DNA of 64,000 nt from a virus. This document shows positions 3,400 through 45,125 of the stretch, piece by piece. The notes beneath the pieces are model-generated. The model saw only the letters and a list, made by a program, of their open reading frames with translations, was not told where the DNA came from and made no database searches. Position numbers and translations under genes: made by a program. Numbering within the stretch: position 1 is the first letter of the stretch; every line of letters starts with the position of its first letter. The DNA lies in the IMG/VR virus record IMGVR_UViG_3300045995_000108, positions 1-64,000 of that record, one strand, 5' to 3'.

Positions 3400-5343
3400 A
3401 TGACGATTGCCAATTTGTTCAAGAAGAACTTCGACAAAACAGTTTCTAAGTCAATGACTATTGATGAATACTTGGAACTATGTAAGACAGATAAAATGGC
3501 CTATGCTACAGCCAGTGAACGAATGGTAGCAGCAATCGGTGAGCCGACACTGGTGGATACATCAAAAGATGCAAGATTGTCTCGCATTTTCAGTAATCGC
3601 ACTGTTCGTATCTACCCAGGTTTCAAAGACTTTTACGGCATGGAAGATGCAGTTGAGCGCATCGTTGGCTACTTCCGCCAAAGCGCACAAGGACTAGAAG
3701 AACGCAAGCAGATTTTGTATTTGCTTGGTCCAGTAGGCGGCGGTAAATCGTCCCTTGCAGAAAAGCTAAAAGAATTGATTGAGAAGAATCCTATCTATGT
3801 GCTCGCCACAGAAGCAGGCGAATTGTCTCCTGTGTTCGAATCCCCATTGGGATTGTTCGCGACACCAGAGTACGTTGCAATGATTGGCACTGAGTACGGA
3901 ATCGACAAGCGTTATCTCGAAAGCATCATTTCGCCTTGGGCAATGAAACGCCTTGACGAATACGGTGGCGACATTTCCAAGTTCCGTGTCGTTCGTGTTA
4001 TGCCAAACAAGCTGCGCCAAATCGGTGTAATGAAGACCGAACCAGGCGACGAAAACAATCAGGATATCTCCACCCTAGTAGGCAAGGTTGACATCCGCAA
4101 GTTAGAGGATTTTTCCCAAAATGACACAGACGCATATAGCTACTCGGGTGGTCTCAATCGTTCCAACCAAGGCTTACTCGAGTTCGTTGAGATGTTTAAA
4201 GCGCCGATCAAAGTGCTTCACCCTTTACTTACAGCCACACAAGAAGGCAACTACGTCGGCACCGAAGCAATATCGGCAATTCCTTTCCAAGGAATCGTCC
4301 TCGCACACAGTAACGAGTCCGAGTGGACAACGTTTAGAAATAACAAGAACAACGAAGCTTTCCTGGATCGCATATGCGTCATTAAAGTCCCATATAGCCT
4401 TCGTGTTACGGAAGAACAAAAGATTTACGAAAAAATGATCACCGGCTCGGGGTTATCTGCTGCACCCTGCGCTCCACAGACGATTGAGATGATGGCACAA
4501 TTCTCGGTTCTAACACGTTTGTACGACCATGAAAACAGCAATTTGTACAGTAAGATGCGAGTATACGATGGACAAAACATCCGTGAACAAGATCCAAAAG
4601 CAAAGAGCATTCAAGAATATCGTGACGTAGCAGGCGTAAACGAGGGCATGGAAGGAATTTCAACACGCTTTGCGTATAAGATTCTGTCCAAAGTATTCAA
4701 CTACACACCAGAAGAGATCGCAGCTGATCCCGTCCATCTAATGGTGATACTTGAAGACTCCATCAAGCGTGAACAGTTTGGTGACGACCGTGAATCAAAG
4801 TACCTTGGCTTCATTAAGAGCGACCTCGCTCCTAAGTACGCAGAGTTCCTTGGTAACGAGATTCAAAAGGCATATTTGGAATCCTATGGCGAGTACGGAC
4901 AAAACTTGTTCGACCGTTACGTAGACTTTGCTGATTCGTGGATTCAAGACATTGAGTTCAAGGACCCAGACACTGGCTTGATGATGGATCGCAAGATGCT
5001 GAACGAAGAACTTGAGAAGATTGAAAAGCCAGCAGGCATTGCCAATCCTAAGGACTTCCGCAATGAGATCGTTACGTTCTGTCTACGTGCCCGTGCCAAG
5101 GTAGAGAACGCAGGTAAGAACCCAGCATGGACAAGTTATGCTATCCTGCGCGACGTAATTGAAAAGAAGATGTTCTCCCAAGTTGAGGACTTACTTCCTG
5201 TCATCTCCTTTGAAGGTAAGAAGGACAAGGACCTTGAGAAGAAACACAACGACTTTATAGCACGTATGTCCGAGCGTGGATACACACCTAAACAAATTCG
5301 TAGACTGTGCGATTGGTATCAACGAGTTCGTAAGAGCAGCTAA
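3400..5343 (+). CDS. prkA: PrkA/YeaG family AAA+ serine protein kinase
   Basis: Walker A GPVGGGKS; TEPGDENNQDISTLVGKVDIRKLE; EFVEMFKAPIKVLHPLLTATQEGNY; 647 aa; AAGGAG RBS. Confidence 0.96.
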   Translation: MTIANLFKKNFDKTVSKSMTIDEYLELCKTDKMAYATASERMVAAIGEPTLVDTSKDARLSRIFSNRTVRIYPGFKDFYGMEDAVERIVGYFRQSAQGLEERKQILYLLGPVGGGKSSLAEKLKELIEKNPIYVLATEAGELSPVFESPLGLFATPEYVAMIGTEYGIDKRYLESIISPWAMKRLDEYGGDISKFRVVRVMPNKLRQIGVMKTEPGDENNQDISTLVGKVDIRKLEDFSQNDTDAYSYSGGLNRSNQGLLEFVEMFKAPIKVLHPLLTATQEGNYVGTEAISAIPFQGIVLAHSNESEWTTFRNNKNNEAFLDRICVIKVPYSLRVTEEQKIYEKMITGSGLSAAPCAPQTIEMMAQFSVLTRLYDHENSNLYSKMRVYDGQNIREQDPKAKSIQEYRDVAGVNEGMEGISTRFAYKILSKVFNYTPEEIAADPVHLMVILEDSIKREQFGDDRESKYLGFIKSDLAPKYAEFLGNEIQKAYLESYGEYGQNLFDRYVDFADSWIQDIEFKDPDTGLMMDRKMLNEELEKIEKPAGIANPKDFRNEIVTFCLRARAKVENAGKNPAWTSYAILRDVIEKKMFSQVEDLLPVISFEGKKDKDLEKKHNDFIARMSERGYTPKQIRRLCDWYQRVRKSS

Positions 5344-5355
5344 CAAAGGCGGCAC

Positions 5356-6639
5356 ATGGCAAATATAATTGACCGCCGCCTTAACCCAAAAGACAAACAG
5401 ATCAAGAATCGTCAGAAGTTTGTCCAGCGGTCCCGCGAGCAGATTAAAAAAGCTGTAAAGGATTCCATTGACTCTGGTAACATAGCTGACATTGAAGATG
5501 GTAAAGCTAAGATCAAAGTCAAAGGCATTGGAGAGCCAACTTTTGGTACAGACCCTAAAACAGGCGACAAGAAATATGTCATGCCTGGTAATAAGGAGTT
5601 TGTGCAAGGTGACAAACAAGACAAGCCACCAGAGGAAGAAGGCGGTGGTGGCACTGCCGGAGGACTAGGCACAAGTGAAGACGATTTTGAGTTTGTACTT
5701 AATCCTGAAGAGTATCTTAACTTCATCTTTGACGACCTTGAGCTGCCTGATCTAATCAAGAAGCAAATGAAGGACGTTACCAAGGTAAAGCCTAAACGTG
5801 CTGGCTTCTCCAACGCAGGCAACCCAGCTCAGCTTGATGTCGTTCGCTCCCTAAAGAACAGCATGGGACGCCGCATTGGCTTATCGCGCCCCAAGAAGAA
5901 AGACATTGAAGCACTAGAAGCAGAGATTCTTGAACTTGAAGCTGTAATGAGTGGTAACCCATTCAACAGTGCCGCTAATGCTCGTTGGAAGATAGCGACA
6001 GAAGAACTTGCTGCAATGCGTAAGCGTATGCACGCCGTGCCTTGGATGGACCCGTTTGATATCCGCTACCGTGCGTTCACTATGCAGCCACAGCCAATGA
6101 CCAAAGCAGTAATGTTCTGTGTCATGGACGTATCTGGTTCTATGGGACAACGCGAGAAGGATCTTGCTAAACGCTTTTTCTTCTTCTTGCATATGTTCCT
6201 CCGCCGCAAGTACGAGAAGGTAGAGATCATCTTCATTAAGCACCACGAAACAGCATACGAAGTTTCTGAAGACGACTTCTTCCACAGTAAAGACAGCGGT
6301 GGTACGGTTGTGTCTGGTGCGCTGGAACTAACAACTAACATTCTCAAAGAGCGTTACAATCTAAACGATTGGAACATCTATGTTGCTCAAGCAAGCGACG
6401 GCGACAACTATGCCGCAGACCACGACAAGTCCCTTAACTGTATGCACGCCTTATTGCCTCTTGTGCAATATTTTGCGTATGTAGAGATTGGTCGTGCATA
6501 CGGTACAGCAAGGGCGACAGACTTGTGGGATACTTATCAGCAGTTGCGCGAAGAGTATCACCAGCTTAACATGCGGGTTGTGCAGGATAAGAAAGATATC
6601 TGGAAAGTATTTAAAGAGCTATTCTCTAAGGAACATTAA
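5356..6639 (+). CDS. yeaH: YeaH/YhbH (DUF444) vWA-like protein
   Basis: IIDRRLN N-terminus, AVMFCVMDVSGSM, GGTVVS and YVAQASDGDN motifs; directly follows prkA. Confidence 0.95.
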   Translation: MANIIDRRLNPKDKQIKNRQKFVQRSREQIKKAVKDSIDSGNIADIEDGKAKIKVKGIGEPTFGTDPKTGDKKYVMPGNKEFVQGDKQDKPPEEEGGGGTAGGLGTSEDDFEFVLNPEEYLNFIFDDLELPDLIKKQMKDVTKVKPKRAGFSNAGNPAQLDVVRSLKNSMGRRIGLSRPKKKDIEALEAEILELEAVMSGNPFNSAANARWKIATEELAAMRKRMHAVPWMDPFDIRYRAFTMQPQPMTKAVMFCVMDVSGSMGQREKDLAKRFFFFLHMFLRRKYEKVEIIFIKHHETAYEVSEDDFFHSKDSGGTVVSGALELTTNILKERYNLNDWNIYVAQASDGDNYAADHDKSLNCMHALLPLVQYFAYVEIGRAYGTARATDLWDTYQQLREEYHQLNMRVVQDKKDIWKVFKELFSKEH

Positions 6640-8087
6640 TGTCCAAATTACTATATGATAGCGACGACTGGTCGTTTGAACGTCTAGGCATTGTAGAAGA
6701 TGCAATTAAAGAGATAGCATACGACGAGTTGAACCTTGACGTCTATCCTAACCAGATTGAGATCATCTCCTCTGACCAAATGCTTGAGGCATACGCAAGC
6801 ATTGGTCTCCCACTGATGTACGATCACTGGAGTTTTGGTAAATCGTTCATCCAGCAAGAGCAATCGTATCGCAAAGGCCACCAAGGGCTTGCATACGAGA
6901 TTGTTATTAACAGTTCGCCTTGCATCTCCTACTTGATGGAGGAAAATTCCATGACAATGCAAGCATTGGTTATTGCTCATGCTTGTTACGGACACAATCA
7001 CTTCTTCAAGAACAACTACTTGTTCAAGCAATGGACTGATGCAGAGGGCATCCTTGACTACTTACAGTTTGCAAAGAACTATGTTGCAAAATGCGAAGAG
7101 AAGCATGGACGTCAAGCAGTAGAGGATACACTGGATGCCTGCCACGCTATTATGGACTACGGCGTTGATCGTTACAAGCGCCCAAGTAAGTTGAGCAAAG
7201 CTGCTGAAATGGAAGCACAAGAGCAACGTGCAGAGCGTGTACAACGCGAGGCAAATGAATTGTGGTCCACGATACCCAAGAAAGACAAAAAGGATGAGAA
7301 GGTTGTTAAGACATTTCCGTCTGAGCCACAAGAGAACCTTATGTACTTCATTGAGAAGCACAGTCCTGTTCTTGAATCGTGGCAACGTGAGTTGGTGCGT
7401 ATTGTACGTAAGACAGCACAATACTTTTATCCGCAACGGCAAACACAAGTGATGAACGAAGGTTGGGCCAGCTTTACACATTACTTTATTATGAACCGTC
7501 TGTGGGAAAAAGGACAAATCAGTGATGGCAACATGATGGAGTTCTTGCACTCGCACTCTGGGGTGTTGACGCAAAGGAAATTCAATGACAAACACTACTC
7601 CGGATTTAATCCTTATGCTATTGGGTTTGATCTCTATACTGATATTCGCCGTATATGCTCCGAACCCACCAAAGAAGATGAAGAGTTCTTTCCGCACCTG
7701 GTGGGTCAACCTTGGCTTCCCACTTGTCTTGACGCTGTGCGTAATTATCGTGATGAAAGCTTCATTTCACAGTTTCTGAGCCCACACCTAATTCGCAAGT
7801 GGGGATTGTTTGAGATTACAAACAAGGCTGCTGACAAGCATGTAACCATCTCCAACATTCAAGATGCTCGTGGGTACAATGCAGTACGCCAAAGCCTTGC
7901 ACAACAATATTCCGCAACATCACGCCAGCCGGACATTCAAGTCGTGGATGCTAACTTGCGTGGCAACCGCGAGTTGAAGCTGCAATACACATCACGCAAT
8001 GGCGCAAAGCTAAACAAGGACAAGGACAAAGTATTGTCCCACATTGGTAAGCTTTGGGGACACACTGTAACGATGTCTGACAAGTGA
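6639..8087 (+). CDS. ycgB: SpoVR/YcgB family protein
   Basis: HWSFGK, GLAYEIVINSSPCISYLMEEN, HACYGHNHFFKNN, QVMNEGWASF; canonical third gene of the prkA-yeaH-spoVR trio. Confidence 0.95.
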   Translation: MSKLLYDSDDWSFERLGIVEDAIKEIAYDELNLDVYPNQIEIISSDQMLEAYASIGLPLMYDHWSFGKSFIQQEQSYRKGHQGLAYEIVINSSPCISYLMEENSMTMQALVIAHACYGHNHFFKNNYLFKQWTDAEGILDYLQFAKNYVAKCEEKHGRQAVEDTLDACHAIMDYGVDRYKRPSKLSKAAEMEAQEQRAERVQREANELWSTIPKKDKKDEKVVKTFPSEPQENLMYFIEKHSPVLESWQRELVRIVRKTAQYFYPQRQTQVMNEGWASFTHYFIMNRLWEKGQISDGNMMEFLHSHSGVLTQRKFNDKHYSGFNPYAIGFDLYTDIRRICSEPTKEDEEFFPHLVGQPWLPTCLDAVRNYRDESFISQFLSPHLIRKWGLFEITNKAADKHVTISNIQDARGYNAVRQSLAQQYSATSRQPDIQVVDANLRGNRELKLQYTSRNGAKLNKDKDKVLSHIGKLWGHTVTMSDK

Positions 8088-14697: not shown

Positions 14698-16104
14698 ATG
14701 AACGTCCCGTTTAAGATTTTGGCAGAGATTGCTGCAACAGACAGCAAAAACGAAAAGCAAGCAATTATCAAGCGCGAAGCAGTAGCGGGGAACGACGAGT
14801 TCTTCCGCGGTTTGCTTGGCACTTTTGACCCTATGATTACATACGGCGTCAAGAAGATTGAAGAAGCAGTTAAGGACGGCCCAGGCCTCCTACCCAACAC
14901 ATTTTGGGGTCTTGCAAAGGACCTCGCAGACCGCAAGCTGACAGGTAATGCTGCTCAACTCGCAATCAACCACGCCCGTATCAAATCCACCGTTGCAGAA
15001 TGGAACGGCTGGTATCGTCGCATTTTGATGAAGGACTTGAAGGCAGACTTCAGTGAGTCCACAGTCAACAAAGTTTGCGAAAAAGACTTCCCCAAGTACG
15101 TTGTCCCAGTGTTCAAGTGCCAGTTAGCAACTGACTGCGTTGACGACGAAGGCAACGTTGCAGAAGATCTGCTGACTGGCAAAAAGCAAATTGACGTCAA
15201 ATTGGACGGTATGCGTGTTCTCACTATCGTGAGCCCAGACGGGCAAGTGGATCAATTCTCCCGCAATGGCAAGGAACTGCTTAACTTTGGTCTGGTCAAA
15301 GAACAGATTGCAAAGCACGCCGTTTTCTTCAAGGAAGTAATGGTGCTGGACGGCGAGATTATGTCCGCCTCCTTCCAAGACTTGATGAAGCAAGCACGCC
15401 GCAAGACAGACGTGCAAGCTGACGACTCCGTGTTGAACCTGTTTGATATCATCCCTCTCCGTGAGTTCAAGTTGGGCAAGGGCACTGTCCCGCAAGAAAT
15501 GCGCACCGTGATACTTAACCAATGGTTTGCTCCGCTTGAAGAAAAGATGCCCAATGTTACTGTAGTTGGCACAGAACTTGTGGACCTTGACACAGTTGAA
15601 GGTCAAAACCGTTTGTCTGAGATCAACAAGGCTGCACTGCTTGGCAAGTACGAAGGCATCATGCTCAAGGACCCAAAAGCTGTATACGAGTGCAAGCGAG
15701 CAATGAACTGGTTGAAGATGAAGCCGTTCATTGAAGAGTCGCTTACCGTTGTGGATGTAGAAGAAGGCAAGGCAGGCTCCAAGTTTGAAGGTACTATGGG
15801 TGCGCTGGTTTGCCAAGATATGGTAGGCGACAAGCTGGTCCGTGTCAACGTTGGCGGTGGCTACTCCATCCGTCTCCGTGCTCAACTTTGGGCACGCCAC
15901 ACAGGCAAGGAAGTTTCCTGGAAGAAGAAAGTGGGCAAGGAATGGGTTACACTGGTTGAGCGTCCCGTTGGTGGCCCAGTGCTTGGACTGATTGCTGAAG
16001 TTCGTGCTGATGCACTTACAAAGAGCGAATCCAACGATACTTGGTCCATGCGTTTCCCGCGCTTCAAAACATTCCGTGGCACTGTAGCAGGTGAAAAACT
16101 GTAA
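14698..16104 (+). CDS. ATP-dependent DNA ligase (T4 gp30-like)
   Basis: Motif I KLDG, LDGE, EGIMLK, WLKMK, RFPRF. Confidence 0.95.
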   Translation: MNVPFKILAEIAATDSKNEKQAIIKREAVAGNDEFFRGLLGTFDPMITYGVKKIEEAVKDGPGLLPNTFWGLAKDLADRKLTGNAAQLAINHARIKSTVAEWNGWYRRILMKDLKADFSESTVNKVCEKDFPKYVVPVFKCQLATDCVDDEGNVAEDLLTGKKQIDVKLDGMRVLTIVSPDGQVDQFSRNGKELLNFGLVKEQIAKHAVFFKEVMVLDGEIMSASFQDLMKQARRKTDVQADDSVLNLFDIIPLREFKLGKGTVPQEMRTVILNQWFAPLEEKMPNVTVVGTELVDLDTVEGQNRLSEINKAALLGKYEGIMLKDPKAVYECKRAMNWLKMKPFIEESLTVVDVEEGKAGSKFEGTMGALVCQDMVGDKLVRVNVGGGYSIRLRAQLWARHTGKEVSWKKKVGKEWVTLVERPVGGPVLGLIAEVRADALTKSESNDTWSMRFPRFKTFRGTVAGEKL

Positions 16105-26915: not shown

Positions 26916-27142
26916 AAAAAGTAACACGCTCTAAGTTCAAGGTAACTATTGAGTGGCCTGAGTTTGATCGCGAAATGCTGTCATGGGCTGAGACTATTTT
27001 TGGCACAGGTGGTGGTCGCGGCACTTGGCGGTATGGGTGGGGTCACTGGATCAAAAGCCAAGACTCTACTCACCGCTTTTTCTTCCGGCGCGAGGAAGAT
27101 GCAACAATGTTTATGCTAAGGTGGGCAAACAATGGAAGATAA
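26906..27142 (+). CDS. FxL[KR]W-array protein
   Basis: WAETIFG; FFFRREEDATMFMLRWA. Confidence 0.85.
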   Translation: MELKKVTRSKFKVTIEWPEFDREMLSWAETIFGTGGGRGTWRYGWGHWIKSQDSTHRFFFRREEDATMFMLRWANNGR

Positions 27143-27536
27143 AGACGCAGATGCAGTGTCAGTAATAGGCAAGATTATCATGCCTGTGATGCGCAAACTC
27201 GCACCTGGATTGATAGCACAACAGATCGTAGGTGTGCAACCAATGACATCCGTGATTACTACCAACGGAGAGTTAGTGTTGGGCACTGCATTTCTTGGCG
27301 GCTCTAAGGAAGGTGAATGGTTTACTGTATCTATTTCTAAGCCCTTCTCCTTTTACTTTGGTAAGGTAGAGAAGAAAACAGACGAGTACAGGAACTGGTG
27401 CATTACAACGTTTGGCGAGTCTTACAATCACCTAACTGACCAATGCTTTTGGTTTGAGCGCGACGATAGGTTCTACTTCCGTAATGAGGCGGATAGAATG
27501 TTGTTCGTATTGAAATGGACACCCAATGGACAGTAA
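27132..27536 (+). CDS. FxL[KR]W-array protein fused to a major-capsid (gp23 Gol-like) peptide
   Basis: IIMPVMRKLAPGLIAQQIVGVQPMT; WCITTFG; FYFRNEADRMLFVLKW. Confidence 0.85.
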   Translation: MEDKDADAVSVIGKIIMPVMRKLAPGLIAQQIVGVQPMTSVITTNGELVLGTAFLGGSKEGEWFTVSISKPFSFYFGKVEKKTDEYRNWCITTFGESYNHLTDQCFWFERDDRFYFRNEADRMLFVLKWTPNGQ

Positions 27537-41537: not shown

Positions 41538-41933
41538 ATGGATAACAAACAATATTTGGAATTGAGCGACCGTACTTGCAAGCATGTCGAAACATTGACA
41601 ATGGATGCAAAGAAATATGATTTGATGCACGCCACTTTGGGCATTGCAGGCGAGTCTGGCGAGATCGTTGACGCAGTTAAGAAGAGCGTCATTTATGGCA
41701 AGGAACTTGACGTTGCCAATATGCGCGAAGAAATTGGCGACATTATGTGGTATATTGCACTCGCTTGCCGCACGTTGGATTTTGATCTGAACGAGATTTT
41801 GGACGAGAACATTGCAAAGCTGCAAAAGCGTTACCCAGACAAGTACAGTGACTTCCACGCTGGCGCACGTTTGGACAAAGTAGAAGATGCCATTGTGGCA
41901 GCAGTAGCACAGTCTACGTGGATCGAGCCCTAA
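41538..41933 (+). CDS. MazG-like NTP pyrophosphohydrolase
   Basis: LGIAGESGEIVDAVKK, EEIGDIMWY, NIAKLQKRYP. Confidence 0.92.
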   Translation: MDNKQYLELSDRTCKHVETLTMDAKKYDLMHATLGIAGESGEIVDAVKKSVIYGKELDVANMREEIGDIMWYIALACRTLDFDLNEILDENIAKLQKRYPDKYSDFHAGARLDKVEDAIVAAVAQSTWIEP

Positions 41934-42051: not shown

Positions 42052-42609
42052 ATGATTAAACTTGCGGCACTCTTAATTACAGTATTTTTAGTAGGATGTA
42101 GTTCTGTGCCGCACGTTGAGTCAGTGGCTGAAGCACCAATAATCGAATACAAAGGTGGTGGGGATGGTTCAGTACCACCGCCACCAATGCCTGCGCCAGT
42201 AGCCGAGAATTGCTGTCACACCAGTAGTCAGTTGTTGTCACAAGCATTTGGTCAAACACCAGAGCCAGTGTACACCGAGGGTGAGGGAATGAGTGCCCCA
42301 ACTGCAAGCAAGCCAAAAGCTCAGCACAAGGCAGCAAAGATTGCCACCGCAGTAGTTGGGACCATAATGTCAGCAGCACAAGCAGCGACTGATTCGGTAG
42401 AAACAAAGATAGAGCGTGACGCAACTGGCAGTATTGTTAAACAAGAAGAAGTGATCAAGCACGATTCGATATTAGGAACACTAACCAAAGTTGTTGGCCT
42501 GATAACAGGTATGTTCGGACTATATGTCGGAGCAAAGAACTTCAAAGAGAAATATTATGCATCCACTAGCACCAAGCCTAAAAGACGTACCGGACCAAGA
42601 GTTATATAA
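42052..42609 (+). CDS. Lipoprotein with C-terminal TM helix
   Basis: Lipobox LVGC; Pro-rich linker; hydrophobic C-terminal helix. Confidence 0.65.
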   Translation: MIKLAALLITVFLVGCSSVPHVESVAEAPIIEYKGGGDGSVPPPPMPAPVAENCCHTSSQLLSQAFGQTPEPVYTEGEGMSAPTASKPKAQHKAAKIATAVVGTIMSAAQAATDSVETKIERDATGSIVKQEEVIKHDSILGTLTKVVGLITGMFGLYVGAKNFKEKYYASTSTKPKRRTGPRVI

Positions 42610-42817
42610 AAAGTATAACGACTTGCTCGCAAGGTTGAACCAAGCATGGCGTTACGGTCCTCATGGTCTTGTCCCACAAATTCAAATGATGATGGAACAC
42701 TACAAGACCGAAATCTCAGAGCGTATGATCAAACAACAGCAAGACATGGCTGAACGTGCAGCCAAAGGTAAAACTAAAGATGGCAAGGGTTATACTGGAG
42801 TCATTGACATTGTCTAG
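42557..42817 (+). CDS. Hypothetical phage protein
   Basis: MHPLAPSLKD... helical ORF. Confidence 0.65.
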   Translation: MHPLAPSLKDVPDQELYKKYNDLLARLNQAWRYGPHGLVPQIQMMMEHYKTEISERMIKQQQDMAERAAKGKTKDGKGYTGVIDIV

Positions 42818-43097
42818 CATTCCGTTTAACATTGTTAGGGAAGCGGTGGGCAAAACGCACAGGCTACAAGCAAAATGGACAATACAACAGATGCCTGAAG
42901 AACCAACTTGGTACGAGGAATACGAACTCACCGACGAGGAAAAAGAAGGATTGGGTCCCGTAGAGCAGGAGGTGTGGAAAGCTCTTAAAACATCAAAGAT
43001 GCTCGACTTAGAGTCCGAGATTATGGATATGCTGTCTGCAGAAATATGTAAAGAGATGGATGCGCAAATTCTTAAGGAAATGTTACGTGGAACATAA
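42810..43097 (+). CDS. Small protein resembling a fragment of T4-type major capsid protein
   Basis: FNIVREAVGKTHRLQAKWT...LDLESEIMDMLSAEICKEMDAQIL; TTG start with GGAG upstream. Confidence 0.7.
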   Translation: MSSIPFNIVREAVGKTHRLQAKWTIQQMPEEPTWYEEYELTDEEKEGLGPVEQEVWKALKTSKMLDLESEIMDMLSAEICKEMDAQILKEMLRGT

Positions 43098-43242
43098 GCT
43101 AAATGAAGATGAGCAAAAGGTGTGGGAGATTTTGTCTACTCCATATGTCCCGCCGTATGACATGAATGATCCTGCTTACATTCAAAAGTTGATTGACGAA
43201 GTTAAAGCATCATTTCTAGCAAAGCAAAATGAGATACGATAA
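43087..43242 (+). CDS. Hypothetical protein
   Basis: GTG start with AAGGA RBS; EQKVWEIL motif. Confidence 0.55.
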   Translation: MEHKLNEDEQKVWEILSTPYVPPYDMNDPAYIQKLIDEVKASFLAKQNEIR

Positions 43243-43747
43243 ATTCGGACAAGGTTACGCCACACAAGACGAGCTCTGTGATTTATTGTACAGAGATCCA
43301 GCACTAAAGCTGGAACAGTTTAAGGTAGAGGATTGGGACGAGTATAACTATCATGTCAAATCGACATACGCCCCCTTCCCCCTAGTACAAGAGTACCACC
43401 CACTGCCACCAGATTACGACATTGCTTCTTACGATAGAGCACAGCAAGAGAACTGGTATATGCCAGACGAATATAAAACATTGGATATAGCGGCATACGT
43501 TTTAGGACTATGCAAGACAGAAGAAGAGTTACAGAGAGTGGGACAAGAGCTACTGTTATTTTATGACCGTAACCTTGAGAACCTGCTAAGATATATGAAG
43601 TACATGGTAGATACCATGCGTAAGAACAATGTCGTGATGGGGTTAGGTCGTGGGTCAAGTACAGCAAGCTATGTGCTCTACTTGTTAGGGGTGCACAAAA
43701 TCAATTCGATCTACTTCGACCTGCCAATTGAGGAATTTTTGAAGTGA
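43229..43747 (+). CDS. DNA polymerase III alpha-subunit fragment (split DnaE)
   Basis: RVGQELLLF, YMVDTMRKNNVVMGLGRGSSTASYVLYLLGVHKIN matches the family-C GRGS motif; only 172 aa. Confidence 0.85.
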   Translation: MRYDKFGQGYATQDELCDLLYRDPALKLEQFKVEDWDEYNYHVKSTYAPFPLVQEYHPLPPDYDIASYDRAQQENWYMPDEYKTLDIAAYVLGLCKTEEELQRVGQELLLFYDRNLENLLRYMKYMVDTMRKNNVVMGLGRGSSTASYVLYLLGVHKINSIYFDLPIEEFLK

Positions 43748-44714: not shown

Positions 44715-45125
44715 ATGCGTAAAGAAGAACAGTTATTTCAAACAAGTGGCAAACTGCAAGCCACTAACTCAATCAAAGGCCTCAAGCCAATTAAAGACCA
44801 TGTAATAGTAACTGACATGGACTTTGGTAATCGCAAATTGTCCTCGGGCATTGTGCTACTTAACGACGATGGGAAGTCTGAAGGCATCCGTCCACGTTGG
44901 GCAAAAGTATACAAAGTAGGACCAGAGCAGCGCGATGTTAAAGAAGGTCAATGGATCTTTATTGAGCACGGTCGTTGGACACGTGGTCTAAAGGTGGAAA
45001 TCGACGGGTCGGAATTTACAGTGCGCAGAGTGGACGCTGCCGCTATTATTGGAGTTCAAGATGAAGAGCCTACAGAAGATGACACCATCAGCACAGCAGT
45101 TGTTGGCGACAGCAAGAAACGATAA
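44715..45125 (+). CDS. groES: GroES-like co-chaperonin
   Basis: LKPIKDHVIV, SSGIVL mobile loop, VGP, VKEGQ. Confidence 0.82.
   Translation: MRKEEQLFQTSGKLQATNSIKGLKPIKDHVIVTDMDFGNRKLSSGIVLLNDDGKSEGIRPRWAKVYKVGPEQRDVKEGQWIFIEHGRWTRGLKVEIDGSEFTVRRVDAAAIIGVQDEEPTEDDTISTAVVGDSKKR

Follow-up and report, generated by a model that had tools for sequence, protein, structure and literature searches.

A stand-alone gene related to a segment of Gp23-type major capsid proteins in a giant uncultured freshwater phage

The window analysed here is a stretch of 64,000 nucleotides (positions 1 to 64,000) of the 115-kb IMG/VR virus record IMGVR_UViG_3300045995_000108, which is estimated to be ~29% complete. 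On its plus strand, positions 42810-43097 hold a coding sequence (the mini-gene) for a 95-aa protein (the mini-protein) resembling a fragment of a major capsid protein (MCP). According to the list of open reading frames and the sequence itself, the mini-gene starts with TTG and ends with a TAA stop codon at 43095-43097, and a Shine-Dalgarno-like GGAG (42797-42800, +) is found 9 nt upstream of the TTG. The TTG at 42810 is also the start used in database gene calls (P0001 and P0002, which begin L-S-S-I-P). A longer reading from the GTG at 42756 is unlikely, because these gene calls and all homologues begin at the position equivalent to 42810, and an ORF on the opposite strand (42716-42931) was without support. 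The mini-gene start overlaps the stop codon (TAG, 42815-42817) of an upstream small gene (42557-42817, +) for a viral hypothetical protein, whose length is 86 aa if it starts at ATG 42557 and 97 aa if it starts at 42524. At its 3' end, the mini-gene is overlapped by a downstream small gene (43087-43242, +) that starts either at GTG 43087, preceded by AAGGAA, or at ATG 43060. Since there are overlaps with both neighbouring ORFs, the translational coupling of the mini-gene is real as a sequence feature. The T4 late-promoter motif TATAAATA was observed once versus 2.3 times expected and is thus not enriched, no enrichment of sigma-70-like sites was seen, and the sequencing runs listed as containing the stretch include no RNA run.

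The only Pfam match of the mini-protein is Gp23 (PF07068; 20.3 bits, E 4e-4), a score that for this protein alone falls below the family cut-off of 24.4 bits; the match links residues 59-92 to profile positions 162-195, and in all only positions 162-197 of 376 match. All seven aligned members of the mini-protein family described below matched the same profile, with a best E value of 1e-8. When the family was compared with 27 MCPs using hhalign, the probability was 98% (E 2.3e-13) over 61 columns with 46% identity and one 27-residue gap. Conversely, a profile of the mini family found a 406-aa MCP (P0011) at E 1e-5 in a search of 5.8 billion proteins, and tblastn of 50,697 phage records returned only full-length MCPs, from the jumbo phages XacN1, Xoo-sp13, RAS14, CM1 and RsoM2USA. 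A chance resemblance to MCPs is therefore unlikely on these alignments. In comparison with solved structures, the two blocks of the mini-protein fell on residues 252-278 and 276-311 of T4 gp23, and its ends are colinear with a single MCP segment, which spans 252-311 in T4 gp23 and 160-222 in the closest MCP.

The N-block (aa 1-28; 42810-42893, +) is the homologue of a β-strand of the MCP P-domain (T4 gp23 ~252-275; P0011 160-185) and carries a net charge of +3. It is followed by a family-specific acidic segment (aa 29-55; 42894-42974, +), delimited by alignment, with a counted net charge of -10. The C-block (42975-43094, +) contains a predicted helix (67-94), and its end coincides with the end of the MCP spine helix (L-x-G-T). 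The initial annotation had placed both blocks in gp23 and had quoted the corresponding T4 strings; the strings were correct, and the alignment of both blocks is borne out by the profile comparisons above. It had also described an unrelated insert replacing the middle of the fragment, which does not hold: the 27 residues are inserted at a single point, between those matching T4 A275 and Q276, and the flanking MCP residues are retained on both sides. The insertion point is identical in all members of the mini family. Finally, the fragment was said to derive from another region of gp23 than a Gol-like fusion encoded elsewhere in the window. Indeed, the ORF at 27132-27536 (+) is a second MCP-derived gene, in which a Gol-region N-arm motif (aa 6-42) precedes an unrelated C-terminal module (hhalign against the MCP N-arm: probability 95.6%, E 1.1e-8), whereas the mini-protein corresponds to gp23 252-311.

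We take Gp23-type MCPs to comprise the PF07068 proteins, among them T4 gp23/gp24 (PDB 5VF3, 6UZC) and the MCPs of Ralstonia phage RsoM2USA and Xanthomonas phage XacN1. The mini-protein shares with them three consecutive elements, the P-domain β-strand, the short P-domain helix and the spine helix, at 46% identity over 61 columns. In contrast to these MCPs, which have a complete HK97-type fold (N-arm, E-loop, P-domain sheet and A domain; ~400-520 aa), the 95-aa mini-protein covers 61 of ~442 alignment columns, about 15% of the fold, and is without N-arm, E-loop, insertion domain, A domain and P-domain sheet. It further differs in its conserved 27-aa acidic insertion, in its several-fold faster evolution and in not being encoded with head genes. 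From these comparisons, we conclude that the mini-protein is a derivative of the Gp23 MCP family and not itself a capsid protein.

Exhaustive searching of 1.8 billion representatives with phmmer retrieved five further proteins (73-102 aa), and additional searches yielded two more (95 and 107 aa), so that the mini family has eight members. The other seven, which come from JGI, Logan and ENA metagenomes, are 73-107 aa long and 38-86% identical to the mini-protein of the window. All members with the N-block begin just ahead of the MCP strand, and all end at the end of the spine helix (L-x-G-T); the homologues of 93-107 aa share their ends with the window protein. Conservation within the family is highest in the insertion, with the motif L-T-E/D-E-E-K-E-x-L ... 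E-Q-x-V-W and a net charge of -5 to -10 across members. A D-x-E turn is conserved as well. Invariant columns are concentrated within the insert (T41, E44, K45, L59, K60) and within the C-block (E68, S76, I79, E82). Between the mini-protein and its 86% identical relative, none of the 13 differences is located in the last 32 residues (p ~0.005 under an even spread). The 18-aa motif L..(E/D)EQxVWxxL is common to the insert and to the product of the downstream small gene (43087-43242), a weak similarity (hhalign probability 49%, E 1.7e-4), and the insert may be a reused small module.

In a tree built from 70 columns and including seven full-length mini-proteins (P0006 and the ORFs with a single MCP motif, see below, were left out), the mini-proteins formed one clade (aLRT 94, UFBoot 97) nested in the clade of RsoM2USA/XacN1-type MCPs; the MCPs of the Phosso, Atu_ph07 and GAP32 type and that of T4 fell outside the latter. 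The mini-protein branches were long, 0.3-1.3 substitutions per site versus 0.04-0.3 for MCPs. Because a single clade inside the MCP clade is combined with such long branches, we read the mini-gene as one old capture, followed by fast evolution under a new constraint. A conserved, same-sized family with common ends and a common insertion points to a domesticated gene rather than debris. This agrees with the initial annotation, which had judged the ORF to be intact, coupled to its neighbours and not pseudogene debris: the frame is open from TTG 42810 to the TAA ending at 43097, both adjacent ORFs are overlapped, and the product belongs to a conserved family of stand-alone proteins of similar length. 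At the level of sequence, the analysis thus shows a stand-alone gene that has been maintained and that goes back to a single derivation from a Gp23-type MCP of the RsoM2USA/XacN1 kind.

Debris of a decayed second MCP copy, or a recombination accident left open by chance, could also have produced such an ORF, and both the coverage of only ~15% of an MCP and the sub-threshold Pfam score of the window protein would fit such a relic. Opposed to this are the eight intact proteins of similar length, which keep the same ends and the insertion down to 38% identity with strong conservation of the insert and the C-block, the flanking ORFs, which have no similarity to MCPs, and the mini-gene's own ribosome-binding site and overlaps with both neighbours. 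The reading as a neutral relic is therefore largely refuted, and we regard it as very improbable.

The mini family is sporadic in its distribution. A search with the mini-family profile showed the mini-gene to be absent from 19 other genomes of huge or T4-type phages (Atu_ph07, GAP32, XacN1, RsoM2USA, RAS14, T4 and 13 of the 14 large IMG/VR relatives, five of them complete). There, the profile found only the full MCP, which was matched as two pieces, as expected since the profile carries the insertion. Two proteins, each with a longest contig of 3573 bp, had suggested a position of the mini-gene beside an MCP gene; this is not supported, as no small homologue of the mini-protein occurred within 10 kb of 80 related MCP genes. 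Scans of viral, metagenome and genome contig collections likewise found no mini-family locus.

Other huge phages contain small ORFs that resemble single MCP motifs. The spine helix alone was found in ORFs of LR756502 (70 aa), LR745206 (67 aa), Phosso (61 aa, annotated as hypothetical) and one IMG/VR phage (133 aa), while LR756504 has an N-arm ORF and LR745206 also a C-terminal-strand ORF. In five of these six ORFs, Gp23 was the only Pfam match, with E values of 2e-4 to 6e-2 at the corresponding profile positions; that of Phosso had no Pfam match and was found with the mini-family profile alone (E 0.059). The mini-ORFs of the megaphages LR756502, LR745206 and LR756504 (L018:1495-1707, L124:1459-1662, L132:502-699, L133:411-638 on the minus strand and L133:616-768 on the minus strand) resemble the mini-gene in being small stand-alone ORFs that carry a conserved MCP motif. 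They differ from it in that each motif-bearing ORF (65-75 aa) has a single MCP motif and a basic tail, approximately K-I-x-x-I-F-K, whereas the mini family combines strand, helix and acidic insert. The basic tail is common to the four motif-bearing megaphage ORFs and to a neighbouring 50-aa ORF without a Gp23 match, and it does not occur in the mini family, whose members end in G-T or G-T-x-T-K. All three megaphages also encode full Gp23-type MCPs. In the 133-aa ORF (L119:1541-1942; 368-kb IMG/VR record G004), which directly follows a UvsX/RecA-like gene, the spine-helix-like motif is C-terminal (mini-family profile E 1e-4; Pfam Gp23 E 0.06). Neighbours in the ESM Atlas were short clusters labelled 'Gp23 domain'; as these could represent truncated gene predictions, they were not counted as evidence. 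A literature search found no published description of capsid-fragment mini-genes.

The source of the window is a giant uncultured freshwater phage. The stretch is present in river, wetland and pond metagenomes, and pieces from three of those runs (river and wetland) were identical to the window, i.e., with zero polymorphism. The family-B DNA polymerase of the record (G000 79469-82144) is closest to those of Sinorhizobium phage Phosso (49.5%) and Agrobacterium phage Atu_ph07, and its PrkA-like kinase to those of uncultured megaphages of 635-642 kb and of RsoM2USA. Genes for this PrkA/YeaG-like kinase (59-65% identity to the kinases of megaphages and of Enterobacter phage LAU1), a YeaH-like and a SpoVR-like protein are consecutive at 3400-8087 (+), with strong PHROG matches. 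An ATP-dependent DNA ligase (14698-16104, +) and a MazG-type pyrophosphohydrolase (41538-41933, +) are ordinary auxiliary genes of large T4-like phages. The mini-gene lies within a run of small plus-strand genes that includes this MazG gene, a lipoprotein-like ORF, a 172-aa DnaE fragment and a Cpn10/GroES-like gene. The DnaE-type (Pol III alpha) fragment (43229-43747, +) stands alone and stops just short of the catalytic aspartates. Its match to phrog_11127 runs from end to end (E 4e-40), and the replicase of the phage itself is the family-B polymerase. The Cpn10/GroES-like co-chaperonin gene (44715-45125, +; Pfam E 1.6e-5) follows the mini-gene at a distance of 1.6 kb. The T4 analogue of GroES, gp31, is specialised in the folding of gp23, and the closeness of the two genes here may be a coincidence. 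Elsewhere in the record, a 105-aa ORF (G000 95759-96076, i.e., L003:1459-1776, +) has a G-x-Y-Y-x-P-Y-x-P-L-L stretch resembling the conserved C-terminal MCP motif; the similarity is weak (Pfam E 0.009, hhalign probability 18%), and the ORF may be a third MCP excerpt in the same genome. Neither a full MCP nor the genes for portal and prohead protease were found in the 115-kb record, at its completeness of ~29%.

An AlphaFold model of the mini-protein was of poor confidence (pLDDT 60). In the model, the N-block is disordered, and helices are predicted at 42-45 and 50-60 (pLDDT 61-77) and at 67-94; the disorder would be expected for a strand that needs a partner sheet. A stand-in MCP model, also of low confidence (pLDDT 44), has a strand at 161-170 and helices at 183-193 and 197-225. 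The predicted complex of the mini-protein with this stand-in MCP, whose fold is uncertain, scored 0.01 and carries no weight for or against an interaction.

Neighbouring capsomers of the T4 head are joined near the quasi-threefold axes by charge contacts, in which a short negative P-domain helix on one capsomer meets a positive part of the P-domain strands of the next (PMC9546572). The gp23 head-length mutations A268V, A275T, D285V and D287V/N adjoin this short acidic helix, H282 and M284 face the portal, and the gp31-bypass changes G292S, V306I and V307I are located in the spine helix (PMC9546572). With numbering checked against the structure alignment, all these positions fall within the segment homologous to the mini-protein (252-311). 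The insertion of the mini family is positioned in or beside the short P-domain helix.

For the two MCP-derived genes, the initial annotation had suggested miniature capsid mimics, either immune decoys or assembly modulators, both of which are candidate roles. The observations suggest the following model. The mini-protein would act as a mimic of the MCP capsid surface, in which the short helix is split and enlarged by the conserved, strongly acidic 27-residue insertion. Its N-terminal strand, predicted to be disordered alone, would pair with a partner sheet, and the basic strand and the enlarged acidic helix together would reproduce both halves of the inter-capsomer charge contact. As the mini-protein carries both charge partners, the acidic one enlarged, its likeliest partner would be an MCP subunit or capsomer. 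The effect would be that assembly of the head shell is tuned, capped or disturbed, either that of the phage itself or that of a co-infecting relative. We assign a probability of about 0.4 to this reading, in which the mimic of the capsid surface would act on the shell through its binding to MCP subunits, and we rank it first, with an immune decoy next. Several points count against it. The phage's own MCP is absent from the 115-kb record, the mini-gene is placed among small accessory genes and not with head genes, the family is rarer than one would expect of a core assembly factor, and fast evolution would fit a role in conflict at least as well as one in assembly. Furthermore, the insert is the most conserved part of the protein yet has no MCP counterpart, and the key activity may therefore not be mimicry.

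The main rival, possible but less likely, is an explanation in which the mini-protein would serve anti-defence: it would show a conserved MCP surface to a host capsid sensor and block it or soak it up, without itself forming capsids. Sensing of capsid proteins is known for CapRel, for Lit/Gol and for MCP-binding Avs proteins. An immune decoy would agree with the sporadic, accessory-like distribution and fast evolution of the family and with the surroundings of the mini-gene, which are small accessory genes at a distance from any head gene. It would also fit that the genome has another MCP motif, the N-arm of the Gol region, within an array of diversified mini-genes, and that megaphages have mini-ORFs with N-arm-, spine-helix- and C-terminal-like MCP motifs, each match being sub-threshold (Pfam E 2e-4 to 9e-3). 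We also count in its favour that Avs sensors are reported to bind conserved cores of MCPs (2026 preprint, 10.64898/2026.01.04.697583). On the other hand, there is no known sensor for the copied segment, the PADLOC defence models gave no match to the mini-protein at E <= 0.01, and no decoy made from a capsid fragment turned up in the literature search. Moreover, one would expect the native short helix to be retained in a true surface decoy, not to be split by the best-conserved 27-aa insert, and, judging from the models, an isolated strand and helix are unlikely to present a folded MCP surface.

The mini-protein might instead be a virion accessory, i.e., a small protein of the decoration, cement or internal head type, which would attach to the shell by strand addition and remain part of the particle. 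Docking at capsomer junctions is seen in lambda gpD and T4 Soc, and decoration proteins are dispensable, patchy in distribution and often encoded away from head genes. These habits would suit the mini-gene, and a small, acidic protein with an N-terminal strand that is disordered in the model and with homology to the inter-capsomer contact region would be a plausible candidate. Since Gp23 is its sole Pfam match and it has no sequence relation to known decoration proteins, we consider this explanation unlikely. Least credible is a split MCP gene, with the shell protein made from separately encoded pieces at ~27 kb, 43 kb and perhaps 95.8 kb: the record has no full MCP and the Gp23 profile matches three colinear places on the plus strand, but at ~29% completeness the portal and prohead protease are missing too, the pieces amount to ~37 + 61 (+19) of ~400 residues fused to unrelated sequence, the third match is weak (hhalign probability 18%), and the megaphages with analogous mini-ORFs also have full-length MCPs.

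For the capsid-surface mimic, several known systems offer partial parallels. The T4 Gol peptide (gp23 ~93-122) triggers the Lit protease with EF-Tu. Like the mini-protein, it is a short conserved MCP segment, one that is active on its own, and the genome studied here has a copy of the Gol region at 27132-27536. Gol acts within full gp23 and not as a separate gene, and the mini-protein maps to gp23 252-311 instead of the Gol region. The prohead core proteins gp67 and gp68 of T4 are small acidic head-assembly proteins that affect head length, and the mini-protein covers the gp23 segment with the length mutations of the ptg cluster (A268, A275, D285, D287). Unlike the genes for gp67 and gp68, the mini-gene is not beside portal or protease genes, and a relation of its product to gp67 was rejected (hhalign probability 0.04). 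Ccm of cos-type PICIs is a full-length HK97-fold MCP homologue by which the satellite redirects capsids. Together with eukaryotic microProteins, it provides a parallel in concept only, in which a protein derived from a multimeric one engages its parent protein and alters assembly. In contrast to Ccm, the mini-protein is a 61-residue excerpt encoded by the phage itself and known here from its sequence.

We tentatively propose a broader interpretation, which we consider possible rather than probable: huge phages may encode previously undescribed capsid microproteins, excerpts from the best-conserved parts of the MCP that are kept as separate, fast-evolving conflict genes. If this is true, such proteins would blind host capsid sensors or poison the shell assembly of competing phages, and the mini family would be a distinct subtype, its enlarged acidic helix aimed at the inter-capsomer contact. 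Should the excerpts bind the capsid protein or its sensors, very large phages would have in them a new tool kit for controlling head assembly, excluding rivals or evading capsid-sensing immunity, and the excerpts would provide short natural peptides against the contact that sets the size of T4-type heads. For working out what mini-capsid genes do, the mini family, at 95 residues with a pair of MCP blocks and a single conserved insert, is a compact, testable case.
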